This document shows, piece by piece, positions 4,403 through 64,000 of a stretch of DNA of 64,000 nucleotides. Both the position numbers and the translations under genes were made by a program. The first letter of the stretch is position 1. Each line of letters begins with the position of its first letter. The notes beneath the pieces were generated by a model. The model searched no databases, was not told the origin of the DNA, and saw nothing but the letters and a program-made list of their open reading frames with translations. Source of the DNA: Eledone cirrhosa. Its lineage: Eukaryota. The stretch lies in assembly GCA_964016885.1 (NCBI GenBank), contig OZ024757.1:14942001-15006000 (forward strand), read 5' to 3'.

Positions 4403-4449
4403 GCCCATTTACACCGAGTTCTAAAGAATTTGTTCTGGAGTATTGTAAG

Positions 4450-11509: not shown

Positions 11510-11574
11510 ACAAAAAATCTGATGCAATTTGAGCTTGTAAACATTTTTCTATAACAACCTAACATATCTTAATG

Positions 11575-11760
11575 GCAGGGAATTGGCAGTATCGGTAGAG
11601 TATTGAACACCATGCTTTCGAGCATAGTTACGTCCCTTTGCAATCTGAGTTCAAATCTTGCCGAGGTCAACTGTGCCTTTCATCCTTACGGAGTCGATAA
11701 AATAAAGTACCAGTAATGCACTGGGTAATTGCTGGCCTTGTGCCACAAGTAGAAACAATT
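11575..11760 (+). mobile_element. Meta-like SINE with a 12-bp TSD (ATATCTTAATGG)
   Basis: Same head, core and tail as 6702-6890, with flanking direct repeats. Confidence 0.82.
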
Positions 11761-11940
11761 ATATCTTAATGGATAGTATGGACATAATAGAGATGATATA
11801 CTTCATGATCTGGTAACTAAGAACAATCAAACTATATGATCCTGCTGAGGGTGAAAGCAGAAATTCATTGCTTAATCTTTTAATCTGTGCCAATTTCCGA
11901 TTCCGCCCCGTCCCTTCAATCTTTCTAATTTCTCATTCTT

Positions 11941-13909: not shown

Positions 13910-14061
13910 GACAAAAATGGTATGTGCAAGCGATATGTGGTCCTATGAGCTCTCAAGCAAGGCAAGTGATGCTGAACAATAATTGAATGGAGCCGTGACT
14001 ATTGCATTAGTCCATGCTAGCTCGGGAAGCAGACATATTAATAATAATACGTGGCCACCAA

Positions 14062-14171
14062 TAATAATAATAATTGTGTCTACGTTAGGCACAAGGCCAG
14101 CAATACCCAGTGTATTACTGGTACTTTATTTTATCGACCCCGTAAGGATGAAAGGCAAAGTTAACCTCGGC
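14062..14171 (-). mobile_element. 5'-truncated Meta-like SINE in an (AAT)n context
   Basis: The core TTTATCGACCCCGTAAGGATGAAAGGCAAAGTTAACCTCGG and the GGCACAAGGCCAGC tail match the other copies. Confidence 0.75.
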
Positions 14172-14685
14172 AATAATGAGACAGAGAGAGACGCTGTGAG
14201 AAAAACGAACTGAAAAAGCCCTTAATGGGACGTTGAAAAGAATATTTCTAAGGGAGATAACTCCCAAGAAAATATAAAACAAGGTTTTAAAAAATTAATA
14301 AGGGAGGTAACTAATAGATATTTTTAAGACAATGAGAATATTCTCCCTTAATAATACGGGTTTTATTTTAAATTCGTAGGAATTATTTTAGAGGAGATTC
14401 GTACGAACATATATGTGTATATGTGTGTGTAGACGTAAATATGTCAACCGAATTTCCCCCCTTTTTTAAATTTTTCTTACTTAACAAATGTTCTTATAAA
14501 TTTATGACGAAAGATTTGTATACAAAAGCGAATGAAATGTAATCTGAAAAAAGAGAAAGGTTGGAATAAAAATATGCATCCATAGTAACAACAATAACAT
14601 CTATTCACTAAGCATTGGTCAACTTGCGATAGTAAAATAGATGTATGTATGTGTATTTATATATATAGGTCTCTCTCTCTCTCTC

Positions 14686-31749: not shown

Positions 31750-34511
31750 TTGGAAGCCTCGACAATGCAAATGGGTAAATCTCCGGGTAACAAGGTCCGG
31801 TGGTGGAGAGAGAGATGTAAGTGGGTGTACGTTGAGATGCGTGGTGTGTATAATATGTTTGAGATGTGTAGAATGAAGGGAAGAGTATAAAGGATAAAAT
31901 AAAAACACAAGAGAGAGTTACCTTGGGAGAGATTTAATAGTCCCTATATATTTCGGATTCACATCCATCAACTGGGGTTTTTTCCGGGGTGGGGGAAAAG
32001 GTTGTTTGTCGGACAACTCGGAACACGTCTTTCGCTGTTTGTTGATTTGAATATCTGAGGTATTCGGCAGAGCGCGCGTGCGCGTGAAATGGGGTCGGTC
32101 GTACAGAGGTCAGCGGCCGAATGAGGGAGTGGGATGGCGCTAGCTGTCAGTCCATTCTCTGCCTGTTTGTTAAATGTTACTGCGTGTGTGTGTGCGTGTG
32201 TAGTTGTCTCGCTTGAGTGTGTGTGTGTGTGTGTTGTTGCATTGTTCATCTGTATTGGCAGTGTAGTATGTTCGTATGGTGGAACGCTACTGTGTGTGTG
32301 TGTAGGTGTCTCGTTTGCGTGTGTTGTGTGTTGTTGTATCGCTTGTTAACTTAAACCAGCCATTTCATTTCGCTTCTCTCTGATCGGTTGTTTATTTGCG
32401 GTTGCAGTCGTTTGATAAGATGCCCTTCCTTGATACGTAACGTGCCGACGTTTCTTTCAGTCGCTAGAATTGTGACAATGGGCCTTCCGTCTTTGTTTCC
32501 GCATTTGTCTATGTGTTTCCGGAAAGACGAGGCCCTGGTTTTAGTGTGTTCCTTGATCCGGATGTGCAAAGGTCGAATTGTGCTACCTATGTAGTATTGG
32601 TTGCACCTGTCACATTCTATCTTATACACGACGTATGTGCGTAGGCAACAGTTAGCATGGCGTATCGGGCAGTCTCTGAGGGAGCATGCGTCAGTAGATT
32701 TTTCGGGTTTCCTGGAGAGGCATCTTCGCGGGGAGGGGCCCGAGTGGGCCAGGTGGATGTCGAGGCCCTCCCTCCGTATAGCCTTGCGGATAGCGTTGGT
32801 GGTTTTCTCGCCCAGGTGTGGCATTTTAAGGAAGCACTTGCCTTGGGTGCTTCTCTGTCTCTTGCGTCTGGTGTCTCCTATTCTGTCAGTGATCGAGGTA
32901 GGGTACCCGTTCTTCTCCAGCACCTCGAGGAATTGCTTGGTATGAGTGACACCACTCGTGGGATCGCTGCATCTGTTTTTGATTCGTGCGATCTCGTTCG
33001 TGATGTATCCTCTTTTGGCACTGTTAGGGAGGGCGGACTTGTAGTGAACGAATAGGTCTTCGTTGGGGTGTTCAACACTGAAGTCAATGTTCTCGTCCGT
33101 GTTGTTGAACGTCTCATAGATTCTGTTCGCCGTGTCTTGGGAAGATGTGAGGATGAGGATATCGTCCACGTATCTTCAGAAAAAGGCTACGGCGTTGGGG
33201 TGGCAGGCGTTGAATGCCTTGCGTTCGAGGTTCTCCATGTAGGAGATCGCTAGCACACCTGATAGGCTTGATCCCATGGGCAATCCCGAGGTTTGTTGGT
33301 ATATTTGGTCAAGGAATCCGAAGTAGGTGTTGTCGACGACGATGGATAGGAGTTGGTGGATGTCAGTGGTGGTGAGCCCGAAGCAGTGTAGGTCGGTGGA
33401 TTGGACGCGTTCCATTAGTATATTGACGGCCGGGAGTGCCGGGACCGAGGTGTAGAGAGCGACTACATCAAGGCTGAAGGCGTATCTGTTATTCCTTCTG
33501 GTGTCGGGATCCATTTGATGCAGGCGCTTCAAAACCTCCTCGGAGCTGTCAACGTGTCCCGGCAAGGTGTCTAAGATGGGTTTGAGTATTCTGGCTAGGA
33601 GCCATGAAATTTTGTAGAGTGGTCCCTCCACGCTCGATACAATGGGCCTGATTTTCAGGTCGGGTCCCTGTTTGTGTGTTTTCACGAGGTGGTAGAAGGC
33701 GGGTAGTCTGCTGTTCCTCGTGAGGAGGTTGTAGCTCAGCTTCTTCGGGAGCTTCCGTCGGTCACAGATGTTGGTCCAGGCGGAGTTGATGTGTTCTTCT
33801 ATCTGCGCGGGAGTGATTCCCGTGACCTTGGAGTAGAGGTTGTCATCGTCAAGGTGTTGGAGGGCCAGAGTGTTGTAGGCCTCTCTGCTGATGACGCAGA
33901 ATTCTTTTCCCTTGTCGGAGGGGAGATAGATGAGGTTCTTCGATTTTAGGTTGGAGAGAGTGGTGAGTTGAGATTTGGTGAGGTTATGTGTTGTGCGTGT
34001 GAAGTATATACGAGATTGAGTGTTTTAGCCTGATGAGTTTAGTGTCGAGTTCGTGGTTGGTGGGTGGAGTGGTAAGTGGGGAACTTGGGGTGGGTTGTGT
34101 CGGCGCTGTTGATAGCGGTCACCCATTTAAGTTGGTAAGCGGCTCGACAAAAGTTGGCCTCGATGTTGAGTTTGATTCTGTCGTCGAGACGTTGTGTGAC
34201 GATGAACTTAGGTCCGAGGTGTAGGAGTTTCAGCTCGTCGCTCGTGAGAGTGCCGGTTAGGTCGGTGACCAGGTGCGTCGCATCATTGAGGATGGATGTG
34301 AATCCGAAATATATAGGGACTATTAAATCTCTCCCAAGGTAACTCTCTCTTGTGTTTTTATTTTATCCTTTATACTCTTCCCTTCATTCTACACATCTCA
34401 CACATATTATACACACCACGCATCTCAACGTACACCCACTTACATCTCTCACTCCACCACCAGACCTTGTTACCCGGAGATTTACCCATTTGCATTGTCG
34501 AGGCTTCCAAA
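31750..34511 (-). mobile_element. Penelope-like element (RT plus C-terminal GIY-YIG) with ~220-bp pseudo-LTRs in inverted orientation
   Basis: Motifs SDKG, RPIVS, SLDVVALYTSVP, GLPMGS.LS, RYVDD, a Cys linker and VVYKIEC..C..YYIGST.R.L..RIKEH. 31750-31969 is the reverse complement of 34291-34511. One in-frame TGA and an apparent thumb deletion. Confidence 0.92.
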
Positions 34512-39565: not shown

Positions 39566-40343
39566 TTAGCTAATAGGCTTAAAATAAAAGAAAGAGCTTA
39601 ATATCTGTTGGGGGCAAGAAGAAAATATTTCTGACTTTCTATTAAGCAGGGAGCACTTGGCGAATATAATAGAGTGGGATTCCATAAGGCAAAGGTTACA
39701 TACTCTATTATGAGGAGTATAGGGATGGGATTTAGCAACTTGCCGCCAAGTGAGGGTGTACTGTGTTCGTGCATTTTTTAAATTGTGGACGTGCGCTGCC
39801 AAGGAAGTAGAATTCTTAAGTTTATTATGTCTAAATGTACACTGGTGAGAGTTGAATCTGGTTTTAAAAGGTGGAAGTTGATCCAATATAAGTTTTAGTG
39901 GATGCAGTAGTTACCACATCACACGCATAAACTATGTTTCTAGTAAGGCAGAAACCATTCAGGGGGCAGCTTGAAGCCCTTCTACAGTTACAGTTTCTGG
40001 TGATGCTATTATCTAAATGATAACTAGCTTGCTGACTACGGGTATTCAAGCTATCACTGCCGACGTCAGTGCTTTCTCCTAGGCGTAAGGTGTCCAGGCC
40101 TTCCTTAATTTTCTTATTATTAGTATTGGCTAGATGAGAGGCCAGATTTTGGGTTGTAGAATACGAAAGTTTAACCACATTCATATTAAGGATAGAATGG
40201 TACTTATTACCAGGAGGGAAGTTCCTTTCCAACATAGAGAAGAAGGCCCTAGGAATATTCGTAGCTACTTCAGAGTTAAATGGGGGGTTAAAATATGTAT
40301 TCAATCTTCTATTCTTTTTATTTTTATTATTATTATTATTATT
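39566..40343 (-). mobile_element. Penelope-like element, C-terminal half (linker, CxC Zn finger, GIY-YIG endonuclease), frameshifted
   Basis: Peptide YFNPPF...KLSYSTT...CNC...CPLNGFCL..NIVY...YIGST..FKTRFNSH...CNLCLME. Confidence 0.88.
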
Positions 40344-40555
40344 GACGAAAGTGGATGTACGTTTTTTGAAGCTCCGTGAGTAAGCAATTTTTTGAGGATT
40401 AATTGTGGAGAATTGTTTATTTTTTTGTACCGCTGAAGCATTATAAGACATTCATTTGTATCCTGTGAAGGAATAACTCATAATATTTGGACCTTTTGGC
40501 CCAAATATTTGAACTTTATTTTGGAAAAATAATAATTTTTTTTTCTCAAAAAAAC

Positions 40556-42439
40556 ATGGCGGAGCCACGCCCCCTAGAGGCGGGTCTGCTGTCGTGCAAC
40601 GGCGACTTGAGCGTTGAGAGGAGAGGTGGGGCGAGGAGCGCCACCAGCACGAGTGTGAGCAGCGACAGTGCCAGCACCAACGGGCCGAGCGGCGCGGAAG
40701 GTGGTAACAGCGACAACACCAACACCAACAAGCCGAACAGCGCAGAAGGTGGTAATAGCGAGAGCACCAACAAAACGAACATCACAGAGAGTAATAGTAG
40801 CGACAGCAGCAGCACCAACAAGGCCAACAGCACAGAGGGTAACCACGACACAGGGGAGAACAACAACAGCAATAGCAGCAGCAACACCAACAAGAACACC
40901 TTCGCTGCTGTGGCAGCGGCTAAAAGGAGACCATGCTACAGCATCGACTTAACCAACAGAGAGGAAAAGTTGGCCCAGGCCTGGAAAATCATAAATCAAG
41001 AGCAGACCTGGGCAAACTTAACTGTCCCGGCAGAAGCCATTGAGGCAGTGGAAAAAAGAACGGTGCATTTCAGATGCATCTCAGTAGAGACAAAGAGGGC
41101 AGCGATAATCGCCCAAGCTGATATAGAAGCCGCACTGAAATACATCAGAGAGGACACAGACTTCATAGAGAGGGGCAGGCAATACGGCACCGTTTCGGTG
41201 CTGTTCAAGTCTGAAGCCCTCGCTGTGAAGCATTCAATGACCCCTTGCAAAACCAGCAAGGTCATAATGTACCCTTCCCACATGGGAAAACGAATAGCAC
41301 GTGTGCGCATTCCCAGGATTCCACCAGGACTTGATATGTGGTGGCTCCTGGGTTGCGTAATCGTGGAAGGAACGGATACAGTCCCGGTAGAGGCAACGAG
41401 AACTGCCAGGGACGACTGGTCCGGGGTTGATCTGGAGATACTGCTCCAAATCAGACCCGAAAACATAAAAGCAATCCCGGACCACATCCGCCTCCAAAAC
41501 GGGAGGGTGTTGCATATAATGACTGAGGGCAAAAGGCCGCATTGTTTCCTTTGTGGGGAAACGACACACTTGCGAGCCTTCTGCCCTCAACTGCCGAAAA
41601 GCGCAAGGGGTCGAAAGATTCCACTGCTGGCGACGCCGGGACAAGGACCACCAGCAACACCATCAACAATGGAACCACCAAAATTGCACACCCAGGGGGG
41701 AAACGAGGAAAGCTCTCCCATTCCCCCTCCCCCCCAAAATACACACACGAACAAGAACATAAACACTCACTCAGACACAAACACGCTCACAGCCACAAAC
41801 CCCTCATCCTCCAGCAGTGAAGATGAGGGAAAACCAAAGTCCCCCAAAATACAAAAAACAAAACACAAAAAAAAAAGAAATCCACAAAGCACAAACACCC
41901 CCACAAAAAAAAATACACACACCACCCACACAAACATTTTCCCCACAGCATCACCAACACAACCACCAAAATCCCCCAAACGCAAACAAGCTAAACAGAC
42001 ACAAGAACAAATAGACACACAAACATCAGAAACTACAGACACCCCACTCACAACAAACGCAGACACAATAGAAACAACACTAACAAAGCTATCACCACCA
42101 CAATCACACGAACAAATAAAACCCGAGCAACAAAACATTAAAAACTTCGTGCTTGCCAGAAGGGCCAACAAGGAATTGATGGCCCATGTAGCACGAAGCA
42201 CAAACATCGAAAAAGAGGGGGAAACATTTGAAGCGAGCACATTTCGCGTACCAGATAATTTGCTTCTGATGCGAATGTCGCTCGCTTCATACAAAGAAAT
42301 TCGAAAGAGCTTTCCTCGGGATGTGGGAACCCCGAACGTAAAACCCACTTCAAGACTATTAAAGGGGTTCCCAAAAGAAACCCCACAAACCATGGAGGTC
42401 GAACCACCCGGCCTTCACAAGACCCCGGAAGGTAAGTAA
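40556..42439 (+). CDS. Tx1 element A ORF1p (intact, 627 aa; CCHC zinc knuckle, low-complexity flanks)
   Basis: First ATG at 40556. Knuckle CFLCGETTHLRAFC. Homologous to element B ORF1 (RGRQYGTVSVLF vs RGQKYGTVDVFF). Confidence 0.85.
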   Translation: MAEPRPLEAGLLSCNGDLSVERRGGARSATSTSVSSDSASTNGPSGAEGGNSDNTNTNKPNSAEGGNSESTNKTNITESNSSDSSSTNKANSTEGNHDTGENNNSNSSSNTNKNTFAAVAAAKRRPCYSIDLTNREEKLAQAWKIINQEQTWANLTVPAEAIEAVEKRTVHFRCISVETKRAAIIAQADIEAALKYIREDTDFIERGRQYGTVSVLFKSEALAVKHSMTPCKTSKVIMYPSHMGKRIARVRIPRIPPGLDMWWLLGCVIVEGTDTVPVEATRTARDDWSGVDLEILLQIRPENIKAIPDHIRLQNGRVLHIMTEGKRPHCFLCGETTHLRAFCPQLPKSARGRKIPLLATPGQGPPATPSTMEPPKLHTQGGNEESSPIPPPPQNTHTNKNINTHSDTNTLTATNPSSSSSEDEGKPKSPKIQKTKHKKKRNPQSTNTPTKKNTHTTHTNIFPTASPTQPPKSPKRKQAKQTQEQIDTQTSETTDTPLTTNADTIETTLTKLSPPQSHEQIKPEQQNIKNFVLARRANKELMAHVARSTNIEKEGETFEASTFRVPDNLLLMRMSLASYKEIRKSFPRDVGTPNVKPTSRLLKGFPKETPQTMEVEPPGLHKTPEGK

Positions 42440-42468
42440 ACCTTTCCTCTCCCATTCATCCTGCCAGC

Positions 42469-45400
42469 ATGGCCATAAGAGTAGGAAGTTTAAATGTTCG
42501 TGGCCTGGGGTCGCCCTGGAAGCAAGGTCACTTGCTCAACGACCTCAGGTCACTAGGAATGGATGTAATTGCCATCAGCGAGACCAGAATTTCCGACGAT
42601 TATCAGATCTTTGCATCTGTTAGTCGGCCGGGAATGGGAGGTGGAGTGGCTGTGCTGTTTAGGAAATGTCTGGATCTCGAGGTAAGGTCAATCTTCCGGG
42701 ATCCTGACGGAAAGTTGGTGGTCCTGGACGTGAGCAATAGCGAAGGTGGTGCCTTTAGACTGGTGGCCGTCTACGCCCCTACTGGGGCCGGTCGGCCGGA
42801 CTTCTTTAGGCGCCTGGAAAGCTTTCTGCTTACGTCTCGCCCTTTACTGTTAATAGGGGATTGGAATGGCATCTTAGAAGCACGCTGGGATTGTGTGGGA
42901 GTATCTGATAGGAGCGGGGAGTGCAAAAGCCTCAAGTACCTGATCAGCCAGTTTCAACTGTCTGACAGGTACCGACTAGATTTCCCTAATGCGCCAGTAT
43001 GGACCTGGACCAATCGCATAGGGTCATCTAGATCGTACATAGATAGGATTTTCATTAGGAAAAGAGATAGAAATAGTGTAGGATGTCCACATTTTAAAAT
43101 GGTTGCCTATTCAGATCACAAGCTTGTGATCTGTATGGTCGACCTAGATAAGACACGTAGGTTAGGACCTAGCTACTGGAAGCTAAACATGTCGTTTCCG
43201 GCACGTAAAGCTTACAGGGACCGGGTCAACAACTTAGTTAAGCAAAAGTTGACAGGGGGGGGTTGTCAACAACAGGTGGTGGGGGGCTCTCAAAAGAGAG
43301 ATTAGAGCAACCTCGATAGGATTTAGCAAAGAAGTAGCAATAGAGAAAAATAGAAAGGAGGAGGGGCTGATAGCTAAGTTAGACGAGGCTATTTGTAGTG
43401 GCATTGCAACAGACGTGCTAGCGGCGAGAATGGCACTAGACCATTTCTTCAATGCGAAACACGAAGGTTGCATTGTCAGAGCTAAGGCGCGTGCTCTGAG
43501 GAACGAGGGAACCAAAGCTGCCCGATGGGCTCGCTTTGCAGAGACGCAGCGTGGAAATAAAACCACAATTCGGTCTTTGACGGATCGAGATGGACACGAA
43601 CTGAGCGATTCCAAGCAGATGTGTGAGGCCTTTCGCCAGCACTTTGCTCGATTGTTCGGGAGGATGGGTGAGTCGGAGACGGCGGCGGACTTCAGTCCCT
43701 ACCTCGACGGCTTGCCACGCCTCTCGATGGCCGACGCTGAGCGCTGCGAAGAGCCGATAACATCAGTCGAAATTTAGGACGCCCTTGTCGGCTGCTCGAG
43801 TCGCAAGTCACCCGGTTTGGATGGTCTGCCCTACGAGCTTTACGTAAATATGCCAGACTTGTTCTCCGATCTCCCCGGAGCGCTCTACTGCAACTGGCAG
43901 CAGAACGGGAGCATTCCCAGTTCTGTGAGCCGTGGCGTAGTGACGCTGATAAGGAAAGACGAGAACAAGAGGGACACACTAGATAATTTCAGGCCCATAA
44001 CCCTGCTCAACACAGAGTTTAAGATTTTGGCCAAGGTGTTAGCGAAAAGGTTGGCGCTTGTCGTCAAAGATTTGGTTGGGGAGGCGCAAACTTGCGCAAT
44101 CCCGACCAGGTCCATACACGACAACCTCCACCTCATGCGATACATCATAGAGAGGGTTGGGTGCAAACCTGGCTTCGGTGGGGCTCTGATCAATTTAGAT
44201 CAATCGAAAGCATTCGATAGGATCGACCATCGGTACTTGGAGGCTGTCCTCGAGGCGGCTGGCTTCGGCCCCGTCTTCAGAAGCTGGATCGCTGCAATGT
44301 ACAGCGGCATCTGCTCGGTGATCAAAGTTAATGGCCACCTCTCGGAACCGTTTCAGATCTCTCGATCGGTCCGTCAAGGGTGCCCTCTCTCCTCACTTCT
44401 GTACGTATTGACTCTTGAGCCTCTACTGCAGAAGCTGGAGTTGTTGCAGGGCATCCCGCTCGAACCGGGACGTAGAAAGGCTGCGTCCGCTTATGCGGAC
44501 GACATCACCGTGATGGTGTCGGACACCTCGGAAATCGAGGTGATCCGCACCCATTTGGAGGAATATGAAAGGTTGACGGGAGCAAAACTTAACCCGGAAA
44601 AGTCGGTGGGCTTGCAGCTCGGCACCTGGAGAGGCAAGTCCATGCCGTCCAACAGCGTCGTTGGGCGCTGGACAGACGGACCGGTAAAGTTGCTCGGGGT
44701 TTGGTTCGGACCAGACCTCCAGGTGGATAAGAATTGGGACGAGGTGACGAGCAGGATAGCCAACCTCACCCAGAAATGGGCTGAGAGAAAGCTATCACTG
44801 AAAGGGCGGGCGGAGGTGGCGAACGCGTACATCGCGTCCGTCATCTACTACCGCCTGACCGTCGTGCCTTGCCCCCGTCCACGCCTCGCCAATTTGGAAC
44901 GGCTCCTTTTCAAATTTTTGTGGAGGGGACGGGTCCCGTTGGTGAGGCGGTCCATCTGCTGCCAGCACCCTCTTCGTGGAGGGCTGGGCATGCCGTGGCT
45001 AATGATGCGCAGACATGCGCTGAGGCTGCGACATCTCCAGATATTTTGCCTAAACGGTGAACAGGTGTGGTCGCCGTTTGTTAGACGGGCCTTTCCGCAG
45101 CTCATCTCTTTGACTGAGCTGCAGTCCTGGGTCAAGAAGAGACCGAGACTGGGCGACTGGTATCTGGAATGTTGCCAGGCGCTTACTGCACTCTGATTTC
45201 AAGATTTCTATAGAGGATTAGTGGAGGGCAAGTACGATGACGTACTAGAAGAGGCTCTAGGCGTCAACGAAGTAGAACTGACCAGTATGTTCCGGAGGAC
45301 TTTCGAGCCGGGGACGATGGATAACTTCCAGAAATCCCTCGCTTGGCAGTGCTACTGGGGGGCGCTGCCGGTTCAGGATAAACTCTACAGGCACGGAAGT

Positions 45401-45832
45401 GCTGTCAGACGGACCTGCCCGAGATGCGCGCAGAGCGACGAAACCGTTCTGCACGCACTCGTCCAGTGTCCGTGCATTGCTGACTTGTGGGGTTATGTCG
45501 AACAGCTATTGTCGCGTGTAGAACGGATCCGGCTATCGTCCGAGTCCATAGTGAAGATTGACCCGCCGCCTTCTTTTGGTCAGGAAGGGCAGGCAATTTT
45601 CCTCTGCCTGGTGGCAGTAGTGAAAGAGGTTGCATGGTGGACCAGGTTGAAAGGACTGAAGACAGACACTTTTCTCTTCGGCCAATCCCTCATCAACTTC
45701 TTCAAGTTTCACTTGGAAAGGAAGGTGAGGGTGGAGAGAGAAGTGCTGCCCCCCAGTACATTTACTGAAAGGTGGGTGAATGTGGCGAAAATGGCCCGCG
45801 TGAGTGGACCTACTCTGATCATGCGCCTGTAG
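42469..45832 (+). pseudogene. Tx1 element A ORF2 (APE endonuclease-RT-Zn finger), disrupted
   Basis: Motifs SLNVRGL, SETR, GDWN, SDH, RPITLLN, DQSKAFD, RQGCPLS, YADD and CPRC...HALVQC. Frameshift in the G-run at ~43260, stop at 43775, lesion at ~45195. Confidence 0.92.
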
Positions 45833-46081
45833 GCTGGTGAATTCGAGAAGGAGAGGGGTGCCCTTCCAGGGTGCCCTAGGAGCGTCGGGTGGCTCAGGAC
45901 TGGTGGGGTGCTTGAGTCAACCCTGGGTGGTGATCCCTCTTATTGGGGAACTTTCATTGTTGTATTTTTATTGTTATTTTGTTTTTGTTATTTATACTTA
46001 CTCGATCTCTATGTAAACCCCCACTGTCCCTGTCTATTGTGTTGTCCCCTATATGTCGGCCCTTGTGGCCAATAAATGAAA

Positions 46082-46116
<35 letters not shown>

Positions 46117-46311
46117 GGAAATCGTATTATCGTGAGCTCCGCAAAGGTTTGTTATTTCCGTTTGTTTAAAAATTGCCATTTATGGAAAATTTTATTGTTA
46201 ACTGTTTATAAGCACACATACATTGTTTTCCGAAAAGGACACCTAAAAAGATTGGGGCCTTGTGCCCAAAATTTTAACTTTTATTATTATCAAAAATTTC
46301 TTTGAAAAAAA

Positions 46312-48291
46312 ATGGCTACTTCACCTCTGCACGAAGCAGCTGAAAGCCTTCCTCACAAAATAACACCTCACACCGACACCACCATTGTAAATGTTACTAC
46401 GTTTGCCAACACAAAAAAAAATATAAGCAGTAGCAATATTTTAAATTTGTCTCAGGCAGACATTCATTTCCCGCCATTACCAATGACTGCAGGTGTTAAA
46501 GCCTCCACCACCACCACCACCACCGCGACAACCACCACCACCACCACCACCACCGCGACAACAGAAACAAAAGAAGAAAAAAATAAATTAACTCGTGATG
46601 TCGAAATGAAATCAAGCAAAATGGACTCTTCCCCACCAAAAACGACTGACGTCACCACCACCACAACTGAAAATAAAATTAATATTAACGATAGCAACAA
46701 CAACAACAATGACATTATAAACCCCCCCCTCAGTTTCGCCAGAGTAGCAAAACAATTCGAAGCATTTACCGTAACTCAAGAAGATTTAGAAAATGCCAAA
46801 TAAATGGTAAAGAAAGATGGGTACAGGGTCAGCCTCACCCCCCCCCCACCTAATAAAATGGAGCATCGGCGCCTATGCACCGTGTCGTATAGAACAATAA
46901 ATGTAAAATCGCGCCGAGTGGAACGGGCATCCGAGTCCCAAACCCAAAAAGCTTTGGGACATGTGTGGGCAAGAAAAACCCACATCAGACGTGGGCAAAA
47001 GTATGGAACCGTGGATGTGTTCTTTGAAACACCAGAGGAGGCTAGAGAACACTCCATGGCCCCATTAAAAAGTGACGACTTCACACTCGTCCCAAGCTAT
47101 TGTGGCCAGAGACTCGTAAAGATCAGGGTGACCCACGTTCCACCGGCCATCGAAATTCCCTGACTAATAGCGGCTGTCCTCGCCGGCATCGAGGCCAACA
47201 CGAAAATAATAACAATAGCAAAAGAAAAGCAGGAAAACTGGTCTGGATCTGGGATGGAGCTCCTGATCCAAGCGGACCAAAAAAGCATTGAGGAGATCCC
47301 AGAGGTAATAGACCTCACTGACGGCAGCCACCTCACGGTAATTGTCAAGGGCAGAAGACCTAGGTGTGTCGTTTGTGGTGAAGGAACCCACCTAAGGGCT
47401 TTCTGCCCTCAGGCTAAAAGGTTGAGGCCACGTCTCCTACCCACCCCAGTGACACAACCATCAACACCACCAGTAGCAGAGATGGCAGCAACAACAGAAG
47501 CAACTATAACAGCAACAACCCCAGCAACAGTAGCAAAACCAACACCACTACCACCACCAGCAAAACCAACACCACCACCACCCAACGCTTCAGAACTAGC
47601 ACCAGCGCCTACACCATCCACCACACCACAACCAAAACAAACGGCTGTGGAGGATTTTCCACTCCCCGGCCTATCACAACTGGAGACAGATTGTGACGAC
47701 GAGGAGTGGGAAACGATATCCGGAAAAAAAAAAAGAAACCAAAAAAGAAAAAATTCTCTTCCTTCCCCCTCCAAAAACAAAATACAGAGGGAAACAAATA
47801 AACTAAGAAACAAAAAAGTTAGGACAGATATGCCACCATCCACACCAGCATCACCAACCCCATCAACCCAAACACCAACACCATCACCATCATTAACTCC
47901 AACACCACCATCACCTACACCACAAAAGTCACCAAAATGCGAAACAGAAACAAACCCACAACAAACGCAAACAAAACAAAACAACCAAAACGATACACAC
48001 TACACAGCATTAAATTTGAACAACAAGCAATTATTGCACTACATCCAACACAACACCAGCATCACAGAAAAAGACTACACAACAACTCCAAAATTCACAC
48101 CACCTCCACACATACAAATCACTCGCATCACACAGAAAACGTACATGACACTAAAACAAAAATTCCCCAAAGACATCGGAGACTTCCGACAAGACCTCTC
48201 CAGGAGGATTTATAAGGACATCCTTCCTGAGGAGGCCACAAGCAGTGAAAAGGATGGAAAAACCGTCCTTCCCCTACGAGAAGTAAGGTAA
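46312..48291 (+). pseudogene. Tx1 element B ORF1, with two in-frame stops (46801, 47161)
   Basis: Three collinear same-frame ORF pieces. Knuckle CVVCGEGTHLRAFC. Confidence 0.85.
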
Positions 48292-48316
48292 GTGGTCTTT
48301 CCCACTCCTTTTCAAC

Positions 48317-51300
48317 ATGACCTCACTCAGAATAGGCAGCATAAATGCGCGTGGCTTGGGGTCGTCATGGAAGCAGGGCCACCTGCTCAACGACCTCAGG
48401 TCACTAAACATAGATGTAGTGGCCATCAGTGAGACCAGAATCTCCGAAGCACAGGCTTTCGCACCGATCTTCGGCGGCTACGATGTGTACGCATCTCCCA
48501 GCCGTCCGGGATCGGGGGGAGGAGTTGCTGTGCTTTTTCGGAGAGGTTTGGATCTTGCCATACGGGCCATCTTCCTGGACCCAGAAGGTAAGTTGGTGGT
48601 GCTGGACGTGACCAGCGGAGACGGGCAAGCTTTCAGGCTAGTGGCCGTCTATGCCCCGACAGGAGCAGGGTGGCCTGATTTCTTCCGGCGTCTGGAGACC
48701 TTTCTTGGAACGTCCCGCTCTTTAGTGTTAGTGGGCGACTGGAACGGGATCTTAGATGCACGCTGGGATTGTGTGGGATTAGTGGATAGGGAAGGAAGGT
48801 GCAAGAGTCTCACCAACCTGCTCAGACGTTTTGAACTGTCTGACAGGTACCGAATGGATTTCCCGAATGTACCAATGTGGACTTGGACAAATCGCATAGG
48901 GTCATCCAGATCATATCTAGATAGAGTATTTTGTAGGGAAATAGATAGGTCTAGCATAGGCTGTCCACAATTCAAGATAGTCAGCTACACGGACCACAAA
49001 TTCGTGATCTGTGTGCTTGACTTAGATAGGCTTCACAGACGAGGACCCGGCTACTGGAAGCTAAACGCGTCCTTACCAGCGCGCAAGGCCTACAGAGACC
49101 GGATTAGCGAACTAGTTAAGCGGGCGTTGACGGGGGCCATCGTCAACAACAAGTGGTGGTTTGCTCTGAAAAGAGCAATTAGAATAGAGTCCATTAGGTT
49201 TAGTAAGACTTTAGCAATAGAGAAAAATAGAGCAGAGGGAGAATTAGTTAGAAAATTAGATGAGGCGCTTAGCAAAGGCATCGCGACCGACGTACTTGCG
49301 GCGAAATTGGCCCTTGACCAATTCTTCAATGCAAAGCACGAAGGCTGCGTTGTCAGAGCTAGGGTGCGTGCTCTCAGACACGAGGGGACGAAAGCCGTTC
49401 AATGGGCCCGAGTGGCGGAGGCGCGTCGTGGCAACAAAGCCACGATCCGGTCTTTGGTGGACCACGACGGGCGCATGCTACTCGATCCCGGGCAAATGTG
49501 TGAAGCTTTTCAGCGACACTTCGCTCAACTGTTCGGGGGCAGTGGCGGGCCGGATCGAGGGATGGACTTTAGTGTCTACCTCGACGGACTGCCGCGGCTC
49601 TCGGCCACTGAGGCGGAGTGTTGCGAAAAGCCGATAACAACCGCTGAAGTACGGGATGCAATGACTAGTTGCACAAGGGGTAAATCGCCTGGTTTGGATG
49701 GTCTGCCCTATGAACTTTACGTACAAATGCCAAACTTGTTCGGAGGCCTCTTGGCGGACGTCTACTGCAACTGGCAACAGAAAGGGGAGAATTCCCAGCT
49801 CTGTGAGCCGAGGAGCGGTGGCGCTGCTGAGAAAGGATCCGAACAAGGGGGATAACATAGATAATTTTAGGCCCATAACTCTGCTAAACACAGAGTTCAA
49901 GATTTTGGCCAAGGTGCTAGCAAAGAGGTTGGCGCTTGTCGTTGGTGGTCTGGTGGGAGAGGCACAGACATGCGCCATTCCCGACAGATCCATCCACCTC
50001 ATGCGATACATCGTAGAGAGGGTAGCTAGGGAACCTGGCACGGGTGGGTCTTTGATCAATTTAGATCAGTCGAAAGCCTTCGATAGGGTCGACAATCGTT
50101 ACCTAACGGCAGTCCTGAGGGCGGCTGGCTTTGGGCCCGTCTTCAGAGGCTGGATCGCTGCCATGCACAGCGACATCTGCTCTGTAGTGAGAGTGAACGG
50201 TCACCTTTCGGAACCGTTCAACATCATGCGCTCGGTCCGCCAAGGATGTCCCCTCTCGTCCCTATTGTACGTATTGACTCTCGAGCCATTACTGCACAAA
50301 CTGGAGACGTTGAGGGGGGTCCCGCGCGAACTAGGATGCGGAAGATCCGTGTCAGCATATGCCGACGATGTCACCGTAGTGGTGTCGAACGTCAAACACA
50401 TCGAGGCGATCGGCACTACACTAAGAGAATACGAAGCGGTGACAGGAGCAATGATCAACCAGGAAAAGTCAGTGGGCCTGCAGCTCGGCACCTGGAGGCA
50501 GGTCCATGCCGTCCAACAGCGTCGTCGGGCGCTGGACGGACGGACCGGTTAAATTGCTAGGGGTCTGGTTCGGTCCAGACCTCCAGACGGACAAAAACTG
50601 GGACGAGGTGACGAGCAGGGTGGCTTCTCTCACCCAGAAATGGGCCGAGAGGAAGCTATCCCTGAAAGGTCGAGCGGAGGTGGCGAATGCGTACATCGCA
50701 TCCGTCATCTACTACCGCCTGACCGTCGTACCTTGTCCTAAGCCCCGCCTGACTGCGCTGGAGCGTTTGCTCTTTCGCTTCTTGTGGAAGGGACGCGCTC
50801 CGATGGTCAGGCGGTCCATCTGCTGTCAACACCCGCTACGTGGAGGGCTGGGCATGCCGTGGCTGATGATGCGCAGACACGCGCTCAGGCTACGACATCT
50901 CCACCTCTTCCTCGACGGTGATCAGGTGTGGTCGCCGTTTGCAAGACACGTTTTTCCCCAGCTCGTCTCCTTGACGGAGCTGCAGTCCTGGGTCAAGCGA
51001 AGACCGAGAGGGAGCGCTTGGAGACTGGAATGTCTTCAGGCGCTCACAGCCCTCGACCAATCGGGCAATGTGATCGGTGGAAACTCCACCTTGGCGTTCT
51101 ATAGGGGATTAGTGGAGGGGAAGAGCGACGACGTACTTGGAGAAACTCTAGGCGTCGACGAAAATCAACTAGCCAATCTCTTCGGAAGGACTTTCGGGCC
51201 GGGGCCTATGGACAACTTCCAGAAATCCCTGGCCTGGCAGTGCTACCGAGGAGCTTTGCCAGTTCGGGATAAACTCTACAGGCATGGAGGTGCCGTCAGC

Positions 51301-51723
51301 CGGGCATGTTCGAGATGCGCGCAGGGCGACGAAACCGTCCTGCACGCACTCGTCCAGTGTCCGAGCATTGCTGACTTGTGGGTTTATGTCGAACACCTGC
51401 TGTCACGTGTAGGACGGATCCAGCTATCAGCTGAGTCCATCGTGAGGATTGCCCCTCCCCCTTCCTTTAGCCTGGAAGGGCAGGCAGTTTTTATCTGTCT
51501 GGTGGCCATGGCGAAAGAGATAGTATGGTGGACACGTTTGAAAGGGCTGAAGACGAGCACTTACCTCTTCGGTGATGCCCTGATTAACTTTTTCAAATTT
51601 CATTTGAAAAGGAAAATCAGGGTAGAGAGGGAAGTGCTCTCTTCCCAGCATTTTGTTGAAAGATGGGTGAGAGAAGCAAGTATGGCCCGAATGAATGGGC
51701 CTTCTCTGAGTATGTGTCTGTAA
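48317..51723 (+). pseudogene. Tx1 element B ORF2 (APE-RT-Zn finger), with two frameshifts (~49785, ~50500)
   Basis: Motifs SINARGL, GDWN, TDH, DQSKAFD, YADD and CSRC...HALVQC across ORFs starting at 48317, 49698 and 50506. Confidence 0.92.
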
Positions 51724-51965
51724 ATTAAAGGTGGAAAACTGGGAGAGGGCACTTGCCCTGGTGGTCAGGGCCACTGTGGTCTTTTAATGGGCTTTCTCCA
51801 CAAATGTCCCTTGGAAGTCTCCCCCCTATTGGGGAATTTTTCTTTGTTATTTTATTTCAACCTCTGTTTTTTTACACGCAGAAATGCCCATTTGTACCGT
51901 CCTGTATTGTCCTGTACTGTCCTTAATGTCTACTTTATGTGAACCCTTGTGGTTAATAAAGAAAA

Positions 51966-52008
<43 letters not shown>

Positions 52009-55125: not shown

Positions 55126-55906
55126 ATGAATGTGCCACATTTGCCCGCCTTTACTGGAAAACCAAAGATGTGGTTTGCCCAGTTACAGGCGTATTTTATG
55201 GTCTGTAAGACCGAATCTGACCAGCGCCTCGCTGTACTGATTAGCGGCCTTCCCCCTAATCTAGCAGATTCGGCCCAAGACCTAATTACATACCCCCCCC
55301 CCTCTGACTTGACGTATGAGTCTTTGAAGGGGCGAGATTTTGAGGAGGAATTGTAAGTCGGTAGAGAGTCGTTTTCGGTCATTGATCGAGGACGAACGAT
55401 TAGGTGACAGGACCCCTACCGCTTTTCTCCGGCATTTGCGGGATTTGAGCGATTCCCAAGATCAGGATAGCCCTTTCCTGAAGCAATTGTTCTTCTCTCG
55501 CCTACCTCAAGAGGTACAGGCGATCCTAGCCCATATGCTAGAGGTGAATACCCTGGATCACATTGCTGTCTCTGCTGACAAAATTGTAGAGGTGACGAAG
55601 AGAGACACTTCGAAGCCAAAGTACGTTGCTTCCTCTTCTCTTCCTCAATCACGCTCATCAGCGTCTGATGACAAATTAATCACCACAATGGAAGCCATGA
55701 CTCGTCAAATGGCGGAGTTGTGCAAGGAATTCAGGTCCTTTGGACGGCAGAGGAGCCGCTCACAACGTTATTCAACTTCTCGCCACCGTAGCCCTTCCAA
55801 CACACCAGAATCACCATATTGTTATTACCATGACAGATATGGTAAAAAAGCCGCCCGTTGTAGGCCTCCTTGTGCTTACGAGGGAAAAGACGACCAGAGT
55901 CACTAA
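55126..55906 (+). pseudogene. gag: Gypsy gag (one frameshift near 55335)
   Basis: Motifs LPAF...PKMWFAQLQAYF, LGDRTPTAFLRHLR and C-terminal CYYHDRYGKKAARCRPPC (CHCC). Confidence 0.85.
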
Positions 55907-58900
55907 CGGCGGATAGTGCGCTCTGCGAAACAACATCTAACCGCCACTTTTTCATTGAGGACCTGCTGTCAGGTAGAGCTTTTCTGGTTGACACAGGTGC
56001 AGTTTGTTCCGTATGGCCTGTGTGTTGTATGAAGGAGACTCCCCCTGAGACGCCTATTGAGTTGCAGGCAGTAAATTGTTCGCCGATTCGAACTTTCGGA
56101 CAAATCTCTTTACCTTTGCAGTTTCGTAATCTGCGGCGCGAGTTTAAATGGATATTTACTGTCGCTGCCTTGCCGTATCCGATTCTAGGCGCGGATTTTC
56201 TCCACCATTTTTCATTGACGGTGGACCTTCGTCGTAAACGCCTAATTAATGGCATCACGGGATTAACTGTTGTTGGCAAGGCAGCAGGAGTTCCAACGGT
56301 TAGCCCGACATTTTTTCTTGCTAACACCGGTGATCCTTTCCATGCGTTGTTGAACTCGTTCCCGCAACTGACTCGGGGAAATTTTCGAGTTGATGAACCA
56401 ACTCATACCACGGAGCACTTCATATCTACAACTGGTGCTCCCGTTTTTTCTCGTCCTCGTCGCTTGCCTCTGGACAAACTCAAAGCAGCACGATCAGAGT
56501 TTGATCATATGCTGTAAATGGGGATTATTCGTTCGTCCACGAGCCCGTGGGCGTCCCCATTACACATGGTACCGAAAGCGAATGGCGATTGGAGACCTAC
56601 TGGAGATTATCGACGCCTGAATTCGATAACGGTACCGGACCGTTATCCTATCCCTCATCTGCAAGACTTTGCGTCTTCGTTGCAGGGATGCAAGATATTC
56701 TCCAAACTGGATTTAATTCGTGCGTACCATCAAATTCCTGTCCATAAAAATGACATTCCAAAAACGGCTATAGTTACGCCATTTGGGTCTTTCGAGTTTT
56801 TGACTATGCCGTTCGGATTAAGGAATGCCGCTAGTACTTTTCAGCGGTTTATGGATGAGGTTACTCGCGGCCTCGATTTCGTCTATACCTATATTGACGA
56901 TCTGCTCATTGCTAGTTCTTCTCCAGAGCAGCATACGCACCATTTGAATCTTCTTTTCCGCCGATTGAAGGCGTATAACGTGCAGCTTAATGCACCCAAA
57001 TGTGTTTTTGGTGCTGAGTCACTGACTTTCTTGGGTCACGTCATCGATGCTGATGGTATTCGACCCCGGCCTGAGCGAGTTAAGGTCATAGAGGATTTGC
57101 CTCCACCGACCTCACTACGTCAGTTACGCCAGTTCTTAGGTCTGGTTAACTTTTATAGGCGTTTCGTGCGAAATTGTGCAAAATTGCTTTTCTCCCTGAC
57201 AGAAATTTTGAAAAATTGTCGGAGGAAGAACAAAGATATTTCTTTGACAGACACTCAACTTGCTGATTTTCAGCACACCAAAACTGTTTTGGCTAATGCT
57301 TCGTTACTGACTCACCCGGTACCCGGTGCAAAGCTAACGCTTTGTGTTGATGCATCGGATATCGCTGTGGGCGCAGTACTACAGCAAAACATCAATGGTT
57401 ACCAGCAACCGCTGGAGTTTTTTTCCAAAAAGCTAAATCCTGCTGAGACGCGCTACAGCACCTTTGGAAGAGAGCTTTTAGCCATCTATTTGGCAGTGAA
57501 ACATTTTTCACATGTGCTAGAGGGTAGACAATTTACTATCCTCACTGACCATAAACCATTGACTTTTGCTTTGAGAGCGAAGGCTGATAAATACTCGCCC
57601 AGAGAGACGAGACACCTTGATTTCATCTCGCAATATACGAGTGATATCCAGCACATTCCGGGTTCACTAAATACAGCAGCCGATACTTTGTCCTGCTTAC
57701 CCGTGACAGCGATCTCGTCATCCTCTGACATAGATCTGACTCGTTTGGCTGCGGATCAGCCTCCCCTTGAGTCATTGGATGTCACATCGCCTGAGTTTGC
57801 GAATTGCGAGATGAAATACTTGCCTCTGTCGACTGCAGTTGGCCAAATTCTCTGCGACGTCTCTTTGGACGTGCCTAGGCCCTTCGTTCCAGAGAATCAT
57901 CATCGGACCGTGTTTCTGGGATTACATAGTATCTCGCATCCAGGATCTTCTGCCACAGCAAAGCTCATATCAGCTAGATTTTTCTGGCCAAATATGAGGC
58001 GTGAAATTGCTGCTTGGTGCCGTTCCTGCGTCGCTTGCCAGAGATCAAAGGTCCATCGACACGTCAAGACTCCCCTGGGTACCTTTGCTAATCCAGATGC
58101 GCGTTTTTCACATATTCATATTGACATAGTGGGACCTTGGCCTGTCAGCGATGGTTTTTCTTATCTGCTGACCGTCATTGACCATTTTTCGAGATGGCCT
58201 GAGGCCATCCCCTTGAAAAACATCACCGCGGAGACAACAGCACGTGCTCTGGTGTCTGGATGGATCTCTCGATATGGAGTTCCATCCACAATAACTACCG
58301 ACCGTGGACGACAGTTCGAGTCGAACCTTTTCCTGGAGCTGTCAAAACTAATTGGTGCTAAACGCATTAGAACTACGGCGTACCATCCCGCTTCGAATGG
58401 TATGGTGGAGCGTTTTCACCGCCAACTGAAGGCCTCCTTAATGGCCGCAATGGACTCGGCGCATTGGAGCGAGTACCTCCCTATTGTGCTACTAGGGATT
58501 CGGTCAACGGTGAAGGTCGACTTTGGATTTTCACCGGCCGAAGTACTGTACAGTGCCCCTCTGACGTTGCCCGGGCAAATGCTTGCCCCTATTGATCTTG
58601 ATGCCCAAGATCACGCTTCCTACGTGTCCCGTTTGCGCTCCTATTTCCACGATTTTCCGCCAATGGACACTAGGAAACAAACTGTCAAGACTGCTGTCCC
58701 GAGGGATATTGCCTCGTGGGCGCATGTCTTTGTAAGGAAAGATTCTGTGAAGCCCCCGCTCACACAGCCTTACACTGGACCTTACCGTGTCTTAGCGCGC
58801 TCGGCTAAGCATTTCACGTTAGATATTAAGGGGTCCAGGGAGACAGTTACGTATTTGCCGGTTGAGCGAACGCCTGTTCCTGAACCACCATCATCGCCTG

Positions 58901-58998
58901 TCCCTACACCACCACCATCGCCACGTTACAAGACCATGACCCGTTCAGGTCGTAGGGTCCACTGGCCCAAAAAATTTTGCAGCACCGTCTATATTTAG
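55882..58998 (+). pseudogene. pol: Gypsy pol (PR-RT-RNaseH-IN) in the -1 frame; one in-frame TAA at 56515
   Basis: Motifs FLVDTGA, YIDD, DAS...RELLA...TDH, HHCC and D,D35E. Slippery heptamer G GGA AAA at 55882-55888. Confidence 0.92.
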
Positions 58999-59629: not shown

Positions 59630-61774
59630 CTAAATAAATAAATCTCGAACGTGTGCGTGCAGCAGTTCATAACTGCACGTATGCAAACATGAGCAGATAT
59701 ATACGTGAATTTGTGTGTGCGGCCACGGAACCTTACTCAGGGGCATACAACACAATATAAGACCTGGAGGGGAGGAAAGAAGGTAATAATGAGAGATGGA
59801 GGGACGGAATTGGGATGGGGTACGGGGTGGGGTGGTCAATCGGGGGGCCGGGTGGGTCTGTAGTTTTTGTAATTTGCATAGTTCTTGTGCATGCAATTAG
59901 GGGAGTGTTCCGAGATCTTGTTGAGGAGAGGGCTTTGGCGAATAGAATCTCATAGCTCTCGGAGATACAGAGGTCACAGCAATTATGGCCTCCCGTGTAA
60001 GATCGCGCTCTCTGGAGTAGTCTCCATTGGGTCTTGAAGGGGATGGAGTTCCTTTTAATGTGCCAGATGTGGGCGGCGAGTGTTGTTTGGTTAGATTTGT
60101 CTGGGCGCCGGAACGAATGTGTGTGGGCATACCAGCGAGTCTTAAAACTGTTAGAAGTCATCCCGATGTACGAGTTTCTTTTTTCATCGGGGCCTGAGAG
60201 TACATCGCATATATAGACGAGATCTTTTTTTAGACAGTTGTTGTTGAGGGGGCAGGTAGTCTTATCAGGGCAATTGCAATTGCCATCGGTTGCTGGATGG
60301 GCTTCGGAAAAGGTAGACTTATTTAGCTTCTTGACGTTATTGTTGGCTAAGTTCCTAGCTAGATTAGGTGTGGTAGAGTAGGAGAGTCTGATGGTATTCT
60401 TATTAAGGATTGTATAGTACCTATGGCAGGGAACGTACCTCTCGATGGTCGACTGTGGACCAGGTCGAATGGCGATATGGAGGGAGATGAAGACTGGAAC
60501 GGCCGAGGAAATCGTGCGGACGTTGAGAGAGGTGTTCTTGGAGCGGGGCCCTGTGGATGAACTGCTGGACAACAGCGCAGCGTTCTGCTCGGAGGCACTG
60601 AGGGAGATGCTCGATGGATGGAAGGTGGACCGTTTCTTCAGAGCGGCGCACAGGCTGAGCGGGAATGGAATCGTGGAGCAACACCACTGGACGATCAAGG
60701 CAATGGCGGAGCGGGGCCATATCTCACCAATGGAGGCAGTGTTCTGGTATAATATGTCCCCTCGGGTTGGACAGGTCGAGGAATCGGTGCCACACAGAGC
60801 AGTATTCAAATACGAGTGGCGGCACCCGTGCACGCCACCACAACGGCCAGTGGGGAGAGAGAGTGCATTCGTGCAGGTGGGCGAAGAAGTCTGGGTTAAG
60901 CCCCCAGATGCACGGTGCACATCTCAATGGGGAAGAGGAACGGTGACGGCCGTAAATTCAAAGAACAATGTGTCCGTGGACGGGGTACCACGTAATGTCC
61001 TGGATGTAAGAAGAATCACTGTGTCGACGGACTCCGAGGAAGAGGAAACCCAGAGCCCTGCCCCATTACTACGAAGATCGCAACGAAGTCGTAGACCACC
61101 GACCTGGACGGCAGACTTTCATATGCAGAGGGACGAGGGGGAAATTGATCCTTGAGATCAGGGGGGCGTGTGGGTATGGTGTGGTGTGCGGTGGGGGGGG
61201 GGAGTGCTCGACCGGAAGAGTCTGATGGTATTCTTATTAAGGATTGTATAGTACCTATGTTGGGTGGGGAAGTGTTTTTGTAAGAGAGTGAAGAAAATTT
61301 TAGCTACAGGTGTTGAAACTTCGCGGTTGAAGGGGGGGGGGCTTGTACCAGCTAATGTGCCTTCGCCTATTCTTCCTGGGTGGGCGTGGGGCTATACTAA
61401 GGTAGGTGATCTTATCTCTAAAGCTGCTGCGGGCCAGGGCCTCGTTGTAATAGGGGGCTGCTGCTCGGCGAGGCTAGATATCCTAATGGAGACACTTTTC
61501 ACTAGGTTGTCTAATATATTTTTGGGGTGGTTAGAATTAACGTCTATATATCTAAGGGATTCATTAGGTTTGTGGTACGGGTAGTAAAGGGAAGTTTCTA
61601 AGTCGAGGGTAACGTCTAGGAAGTTAGCTTTAGTTAAGTTTTCCTGAAGATTTCATCTGAATGAAACAGTACTAGTCCTGTAGAAGCTCCTTCTATACAA
61701 TAAATATATTTTACTCTGCCATGTATTGAGTACCTTACTTACTGTGGTTATCCCCGACTCAACCCGGGACCTAC

Positions 61775-63830: not shown

Positions 63831-63849
63831 TAGCTTTTTCTAACCACAA

Positions 63850-64000
63850 TTACTATGGGTTCTAATGATTCGGCGGAAGTAACAGATCTTGTGGGAATTT
63901 ATATCACCCACAGACTACAAGGAAAATTCAAGGATCTCCACGGTGATGATGCGCTCCTATTAGTTAAGCATATGAACAACCAGAATTTAGAAAGGATGCG
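63850..64000 (+). mobile_element. Penelope-like RT fragment running off the window end
   Basis: Peptide ITMGSNDSAEVTDLVGIY...DDALL, homologous to 52560-52690. Confidence 0.75.

Follow-up and report, generated by a model that had tools for sequence, protein, structure and literature searches.

This report concerns a 64,000-nucleotide (nt) stretch of the Eledone cirrhosa genome (assembly GCA_964016885.1, contig OZ024757.1, positions 14,942,001 to 15,006,000 of the forward strand; hereafter the window), in which two long interspersed nuclear elements (LINEs), designated A and B, lie in tandem within the open reading frame (ORF) of a Penelope-like retroelement. The chain reads (ATT)6-A-(ATT)11-B-(ATT)14, with zero extra bases at any junction, as the first-pass annotation of this DNA had described it (Table 1). 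Both LINEs are full-length and decayed, ORF2 of A being interrupted by one frameshift and two stops and B carrying the defects listed in the table. ORF2 of either element, which encodes an apurinic endonuclease (APE) and a reverse transcriptase (RT), matched the Pfam entries Exo_endo_phos, RVT_1 and zf-RVT, and each ORF1 holds one CCHC knuckle (CFLCGETTHLRAFC in A, CVVCGEGTHLRAFC in B), a feature typical of Tx1 elements. The nucleotide identity of A and B was 75.7% across 3418 ORF2 columns, and their ORF1 cores were 32% identical at the amino acid (aa) level. At a likeness of only 76%, A and B represent two separate families, and the tandem duplication of a single element was thus ruled out. 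In A, B and a 31-nt stub of an A-like LINE found elsewhere in the window, AATAAA lies 6-7 nt ahead of the ATT tract, and no copy carries poly-A. Compared to other copies of its family, the B of the window is missing 13 nt just inside its 5′ end. With regard to the order of insertion, A differed from the contigs of sequencing run X6 at 18 of 2392 positions and B at 16 of 1199 (P 0.10; three pieces each for A and B, one highly diverged piece of each having been dropped), a weak hint that B may have inserted before A, of which no use is made in what follows.

Table 1. Elements, ATT tracts and other features of the window.
Feature	Position	Strand	Remarks
(ATT)6, 5′ flank of A	40326..40343	+	likely left copy of the duplicated target
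LINE A, 5740 nt	40344..46083	+	ORF1 40556-42439 (627 aa, CCHC); ORF2 42469-45832 (APE, RT, zf-RVT; broken)
A 3′ hairpin GGCC-CTTGT-GGCC, then AATAAA	46058..46076	+	
(ATT)11 linking A to B	46084..46116	+	
LINE B, 5850 nt	46117..51966	+	ORF1 46312-48291 (two stops); ORF2 48317-51723 (two frameshifts)
B 3′ hairpin AACC-CTTGT-GGTT, then AATAAA	51942..51960	+	compensatory changes relative to A
(ATT)14, 3′ of B	51967..52008	+	
Penelope-like host, C-terminal part (..YFNPPF, CxC..CP, KTYIGST)	39566..40325	-	frameshift near 39867
Penelope-like host, RT part, 384 aa	52009..53160	-	5′-truncated; ends in a long Ser/Asn-rich linker
3′ end of A-like LINE (stub), 31 nt, 5′-truncated	11456..11486	-	28/30 nt identical to A; (ATT)7 upstream, (ATT)4 downstream
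Two tandem SINE copies after the stub	11015..11443	-	ATT tracts between and after; second, independent chain
Solo SINE	6687..6904	+	14-nt exact target duplication starting (ATT)3 (junction 6701); no net tail
Solo SINE	23503..23709	-	16-nt duplication, 2 mismatches, starting (ATT)2 (junction 23693); no net tail
5′-truncated SINE	14060..14177	-	(ATT)2 upstream, (ATT)5 downstream (junction 14171); net gain 3 units
Solo SINE at non-ATT site	11564..11770	+	10-nt duplication ATATCTTAAT (junction 11574); one ATT unit added; exception
Penelope-like element with GIY-YIG match	32351..34024		
Second Penelope-like copy, short linker	59733..61700		apparently interrupted by pieces of an integrase of long terminal repeat (LTR) type
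RT fragment	63849..63965		strand opposite to the copy at 59733-61700
Gypsy-type LTR element	55328..58998		gag-like, protease-like and 826-aa RT-RNaseH-integrase frames
Pif1 helicase fragment (Helitron-like) and further RT fragment	24737..25399 and 25857..26333		
Minisatellite, 4.3 kb	135..4403		30-nt unit, ~142 copies; open in one minus-strand frame

The A-B chain lies antisense within the Penelope-like ORF. Its in-script excision yielded a single open minus-strand frame of 538-552 aa, which aligned across the join with the uninterrupted relative P0218 (residues 3-543, 41% identity, E 8e-129). The first-pass annotation had placed the split in the poly-Asn codons of the host; the restoration of the frame stands, but the frame stays open for any count of ATT units, zero included, so that a clean insertion is demonstrated and not a pre-existing poly-Asn run, and frame restoration was rejected as proof of the latter. 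The host copy is itself 5′-truncated and frameshifted. We tentatively take it to be a Penelope element from its layout of an RT followed by GIY-YIG: the uninterrupted relatives P0218 and P0341 matched GIY-YIG at E 0.002-0.012 and RVT_1 at 0.019, all below the Pfam cut-off, and the host pieces of the window, which yielded no relevant Pfam match, are colinear with uninterrupted relatives over 540 aa. Named relatives of the interrupted ORF come from Octopus bimaculoides (55%) and Argonauta, the closest protein relatives reaching at most 55%; two from octopods (P0221 and P0296) have long Asn/Ser-rich linkers devoid of poly-Asn and are uninformative as to the empty site.

ATT tracts also flank related elements elsewhere in the window. 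The second chain, (ATT)7-stub-(ATT)4-SINE-(ATT)6..-SINE-(ATT)5 (11015-11507), combines the A-like stub with two copies of a short interspersed nuclear element (SINE) whose family has ~30 terminal nt in common with A and B. Junctions were counted for A, B, the stub and the six SINE copies with ends; short SINE-like matches at 21586 and 34918, which have no ends, were left out. At least two ATT units were present within 25 nt upstream of eight of the nine element 5′ junctions, against a window background of 1.1%, and upstream ATT was found at 5/6 independent insertion sites. Three of the four solo SINEs were preceded by ATT (P 6e-6 versus the 1.1% background). Since the stub has no 5′ region and yet is preceded by (ATT)7, ATT at this site represents target rather than a leader belonging to the element. 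On the 3′ side, all nine element ends lead into ATT and none into poly-A. Eight of the nine ATT-class tracts of at least 12 nt adjoin these LINEs and SINEs; of the 16 tracts of at least three units, ten adjoin elements, an eleventh is separated from such a tract by 11 nt, another falls within A and the remaining four stand free. The base immediately before the ATT run was C at all three solo ATT target sites (6687, 23709 and 14177). C is likewise followed directly by ATTATT at the 3′ end of each LINE (A, B and the stub), such that the LINE's own end mimics the preferred insertion edge. An 11-nt piece, GGTGGCCACGT (minus strand, 14049-14059), lies between two ATT tracts after one of the SINEs and is possibly a tiny insertion.

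Evidence from other copies of family B came from the reads of four sequencing runs aligned to 46102-46221. Because the B of the window is missing 13 nt near its 5′ end, reads from other copies are reported there as loose ends that carry the flank. Families A and B were both high-copy in four runs; summed read depth, which is not a copy number, was much greater for the B 5′ region than for A in X1, and much greater for A than for B in X4. In the raw-read run X24 (organism A; 739 reads aligned), 76 reads shared a loose-end consensus of (ATT)5 followed by GGCGACCTACGTAGT (agreement 0.92, median length 25), against an agreement of 0.36-0.41 for four chimeric loose ends that fall at AATT sites and were tabulated alongside. 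A 13.3-kb read alignment gave two large loose ends, both AT-rich; positioned at AATT and likely chimeras of the library, they were rejected as truncation points. Random window flanks matched (ATT)5 at 13 or more of 15 positions in 0.02% of 5000 draws. Fourteen contigs of run X1 displayed the same (ATT)5 consensus and seven more a decayed ATT flank (0.86), and all five ATT units were spanned by a single contig in X4 (organism B; depth 160) and by a single contig in X7 (organism D). Under several read-length assumptions, ~53-80% of the B 5′-end reads of X24 were ATT-flanked, a rough bound derived from the consensus and its agreement value rather than a count of loci, with 29 further loose-end rows outside it. 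This proportion, while not per-locus, lies above the share of flanks (>20%) used to define target-specific Tx1 families in PMC4494074.

Whether the ATT found downstream of the elements is a tail or a duplicated target was addressed at the four solo SINE sites, where duplications of 6-16 nt flank the element. The net ATT gain beyond the duplicated target was 0 (6701), 0 (23693), 3 (14171) and 1 unit (11574). No unique-sequence duplication was found at the outer edges of either chain, which, set beside the unique-sequence duplications of the solo SINEs, places the duplication of the chains inside ATT. The A-B chain totals 31 ATT units, and the Penelope copy would have held about four or five units before the first insertion. 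Usable ATT is left on both sides of each insertion. It is thus target-site duplication, and not a special tail, that likely renews the landing pad, and de novo seeding of microsatellites beyond small gains is not supported.

The LINEs and the SINE are further linked by a four-pair hairpin with the loop CUUGU or CUCGU, common to A, B, the stub, the SINE and a sister lineage described below. A has the stem GGCC/GGCC and B has AACC/GGTT, and the SINE and sister elements alike have (A/T)GGC/GCC(T/A). Pairing was retained in 94.6% of 56 cells, seven of them with two-sided changes, and in 91.7% of cells when the window sequences alone were considered. None of 500 shuffles scored as high; as the hairpin was drawn from the same, related sequences, which biases the comparison with slid controls in its favour, this result is not to be read as a probability. 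A shared 3′ stem-loop with compensatory changes, the criterion for a stringent SINE-LINE pair, is thus present over ~30 common nt, and the covariation names the likely LINE partner of an abundant SINE. No match to these SINEs was found in Rfam. They may resemble CORE-SINEs of the Octopus OR type. Octopus OR2 is listed as a CORE SINE in PMC4758252.

The sister lineage surfaced in a scan of prokaryote genomes, in which 37 of 43 loci fell on one record (CAXXMW01) whose element shows 49% RT-region identity to A. The contigs of this record (loci L081-L116 and L123-L145) abound in (TA)n and LINE arrays; evidently they are animal DNA that contaminates a bacterial genome bin. The ORF2 encoded there shares 90-97% identity with proteins from the clade sister to A, B and the protein P0001 (support 1.0). 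The elements form head-to-tail arrays with a period of 6.4-6.9 kb; among the 40 of 72 candidates that were scored, the longest run on a single contig comprised 13 3′ ends. In 50/50 ends, a few of them cut by the locus edge, AATAAA was followed by no (ATT)3, (AAT)3 or A10, and ends added later agreed; what follows is a subfamily-specific spacer of 16-18 nt, which may be a duplicated target, a travelling tag or both. The same spacer precedes the first copy at two of six array starts and is partly resembled at three; in one array, 8 of the first 10 spacer nt recur in the flank upstream of the first copy. Each array consists of one subfamily (RT region 99.65-100% identical within arrays and 93-99% between them), and one holds an identical 3131-nt truncated copy twice, which points to recombination as well. 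Stacking at one site therefore requires no microsatellite tail in this lineage, since its members stack without repeat or poly-A.

From these observations, the A/B lineage probably inserts by preference into (ATT)n and leaves ATT on both sides mainly by target duplication, so that the same site would be hit again; the preference for ATT is supported for B and likely for A. The specificity claimed by the first-pass annotation accordingly survives as a preference, borne out by the read consensus of B, the stub with its (ATT)7 and the SINE duplications, and not, at least for the SINE, as an absolute rule. Several observations speak against even this preference. One of the four solo SINE sites is without ATT, and the other three have just two or three units. 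The 76 reads of X24 stem from one reduced-representation run and from an uncertain number of loci, with 44-46 start places counted at variants nearby, and half of the 14 X1 contigs show at most 13 loose letters, barely reaching the flank. Support for family A consists of the window copy and the 31-nt stub, the read flanks covering B alone. An Asn run of at least four residues occurs in the linker of 0/94 and 2/46 host relatives, all of them distant, and the empty Penelope site was not seen. In the sister lineage, finally, two contigs have a spacer in common, and the first copy of one array starts within the spacer itself; junction sequence can thus travel with the element, and the 5′ ATT of B may in part be such a tag.

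Three other explanations were weighed against preferential insertion. The first-pass annotation had proposed for the element a genuine (ATT)n tail which, deposited at new sites, creates fresh microsatellites and landing pads. Such a tail would agree with the entry of 9/9 window 3′ ends into ATT without poly-A, with the 8/9 tracts of at least 12 nt that adjoin elements, with the gains of one and three units at two SINE sites and with the 31 units of the A-B chain. The association of tracts with elements is, however, also expected from targeting, the gain was zero at the two cleanest duplications and a single unit at the non-ATT site, and the sister lineage stacks without a tail repeat, making this proposal distinctly unlikely. 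The regeneration of the target holds insofar as ATT is seen on both sides, the tail being a poor candidate for its cause. An incidental site without any real targeting, where the 5′ ATT would be a co-transcribed leader and the tandems would arise by template jumping or recombination, might be read from the sister spacers that appear to travel as 5′ tags and from a host frame that is intact with zero ATT units. It is very improbable given that A and B, as different families (76%), are no duplication, that the stub devoid of a 5′ end still has (ATT)7 upstream, and that the unique-sequence duplications of two SINE sites contain ATT and no outer duplication is found at either chain.

A third explanation, RNA-guided homing, differs from preferential insertion solely in what sets the specificity. 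The endonuclease would be fairly loose, and the site would be picked where nicked DNA pairs with the 10-20 nt of RNA beyond AAUAAA; a master copy, once inserted in ATT, would have locked its descendants onto this repeat, the sister subfamilies homing to their own spacers. The single-subfamily sister arrays, each subfamily with its own spacer, the first-copy flank matching its spacer at 8/10 nt and the sufficiency of two or three ATT units at SINE sites all speak for it. Yet homogeneous arrays also result from unequal crossing-over or template jumping, as the 3131-nt truncated copy present twice recalls, and the C before ATT at 3/3 solo ATT sites falls outside the pairing region, a hint of read-out by protein. 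Target choice is, moreover, set mainly by the endonuclease according to PMC4494074. On balance we consider RNA-guided homing unlikely.

For preferential insertion with target duplication, the following course of events may be envisaged, each molecular step being proposed from sequence comparison. ORF2p would bind the 3′ stem-loop, whose loop CUUGU and covarying stem recur in both LINEs, in the SINE and in the sister lineage. The RNA would end shortly past AAUAAA, within a few AUU units transcribed from the parent copy's flank. The APE would nick the (AAT)n strand, often at the edge between C and ATT, and the freed DNA 3′ end would pair with the AUU units and prime reverse transcription, hence no poly-A would be copied. 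A second nick ~10-16 nt away, as seen at the SINE sites and presumably shared by the LINEs, would duplicate the target, and in a tract of at least five units the duplication would consist entirely of ATT. Both junction tracts survive and host further LINE or SINE copies, as is seen in the window. The net ATT added per event would be small (0-3 units), slippage likely adding more.

The assignment of A and B to Tx1-type LINEs is a putative one, drawn from their architecture and RT scores rather than from a tree with named references. Their best solved relative was human L1 ORF2p (137 bits, versus 72 for R2), and their architecture is that of the L1 group. With the RT of A, six U2-associated elements scored 246-294 bits, an element flanked by 5S scored 234 bits and human L1 scored 137 bits. 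In a tree of 81 sequences and 425 columns, built without a named Tx1 reference or L1 outgroup, A+B+P0001 and the sister clade received a support of 1.0 and deeper nodes 0.2-0.4. Atlas look-alikes of ORF1 carry zf-CCHC and, in one case, a ZCCHC3-type RBD, which serves as a lead only. An identity with Dong/R4 was rejected on account of the APE at the N-terminus of ORF2. Seven distant relatives (L001, L005, L006, L010, L012, L014 and L017) are tied to U2 small nuclear RNA or 5S ribosomal RNA sequence, and some of these U2/5S-associated relatives hold a U2-like stretch inside their 5′ part; the U2-associated loci are probably Keno-like, by comparison with PMC4494074. A metagenome scan returned 80 loci, all at most 44% identical and none ATT-ended by repeat scan, which provided context for the tree only, and none of these LINEs was found in the viral contigs scanned.

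Two further features of the LINE transcripts were noted. RNA around the ORF2 start is predicted to pair with RNA around the ORF2 stop, both in A (42430-42500 with 45800-45870, -54.6 kcal/mol) and in B (48275-48345 with 51690-51760, -55.6 kcal/mol). None of 100 dinucleotide shuffles was as strong, A/B cross pairs were weaker (-44 and -46), and the pairing was not seen in the matching windows of one sister copy (-33.8; 31/100 shuffles). A splice-donor-like AAGGTAAGT is present at the end of ORF1 in A (~42428-42437), B (~48285-48294) and a sister element (L084, ~8362-8371).

A preference for (ATT)n would likely add both ATT and octopods to the list of microsatellite-targeting Tx1 families, and would account for the ATT tracts of the window sitting nearly always at retroelement ends, which is relevant to microsatellite markers and to the annotation of repeats. 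Set against the sister arrays, which have no tail, it also makes the long-standing question of endonuclease read-out versus pairing of the RNA 3′ end testable within one lineage. It is conceivable, though doubtful, that the target is programmed by RNA, the transcript reading 10-20 nt past AAUAAA into the duplicated target of its parent and the pairing of this extension picking the next site. If so, one ancestral machine would give rise both to tail-less sister arrays and to ATT-locked octopod families with no change of endonuclease, and targets could be switched at little evolutionary cost and programmed in the laboratory.

Among known systems, the L1 and Alu elements, whose poly(A) tails are sources of microsatellites (PMC3812793), resemble the scheme proposed for A and B in that the tail pairs with the nicked target and the elements give rise to microsatellites; they differ in their weak TTAAAA preference and long non-target tails, whereas little net tail is seen here. 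UnaL2 ends in (TGTAA)n and the I factor in (TAA)n, the repeats being implicated in starting reverse transcription (PMC3747384). A 3′ stem-loop followed by short terminal repeats, common to a partner SINE, is thus a shared trait, although these elements belong to other clades and the terminal repeat described here is the target, from which it seems mostly derived. We know of no long-tract target specificity for UnaL2 or the I factor. Dong elements of B. mori, A. gambiae and B. glabrata insert in TAA microsatellites (PMC3812793), the same repeat class as ATT. They are, in contrast, members of the R4 clade, judging from the label Dong-R4, which is characterized by a restriction-like endonuclease (PMC4640811), whereas A and B have an N-terminal APE and a CCHC ORF1. 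In O. vulgaris, where Dong-R4 is abundant and recently active, 80 L1-Tx1 and 51 Dong-R4 families have been reported (PMC13282606); the term 'target' is absent from the accessible parts of the text and supplement of that source. Nor is an ATT-targeting Tx1 named in the accessible portions of PMC8967140, PMC11203168, PMC4758252, PMC4640811 and PMC2881922, and none was found, in cephalopods or elsewhere, among the papers listed by full-text searches, judged mostly from titles and the beginnings of abstracts and exclusive of Repbase Reports, Dfam and subscription journals.

Further parallels lie among Tx1 elements. In crocodilians, SINEU and Tx1-Mar share a target preference, and tandem SINEU insertions sandwich the target duplication (PMC4494074). 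As here, a Tx1 family and a SINE share their target and insert sequentially in tandem; the target there is a Mariner transposon, as opposed to the microsatellite of the present case, in which SINE and LINE share a covarying hairpin. Kibi and Koshi, which the first-pass annotation had cited as precedents, target (TC)n and (TTC)n, respectively, in teleosts, and crocodilian Tx1 elements target (TTCC)n/(TTTC)n (PMC4494074). Like A and B, these are two-ORF LINEs with APE and RT that prefer a microsatellite, the difference residing in the ATT target and the octopod host, a likeness drawn from published descriptions, any kinship with Kibi and Koshi being putative. For microsatellite-seeking Tx1 LINEs, a class already known, ATT is thus likely a new target repeat.

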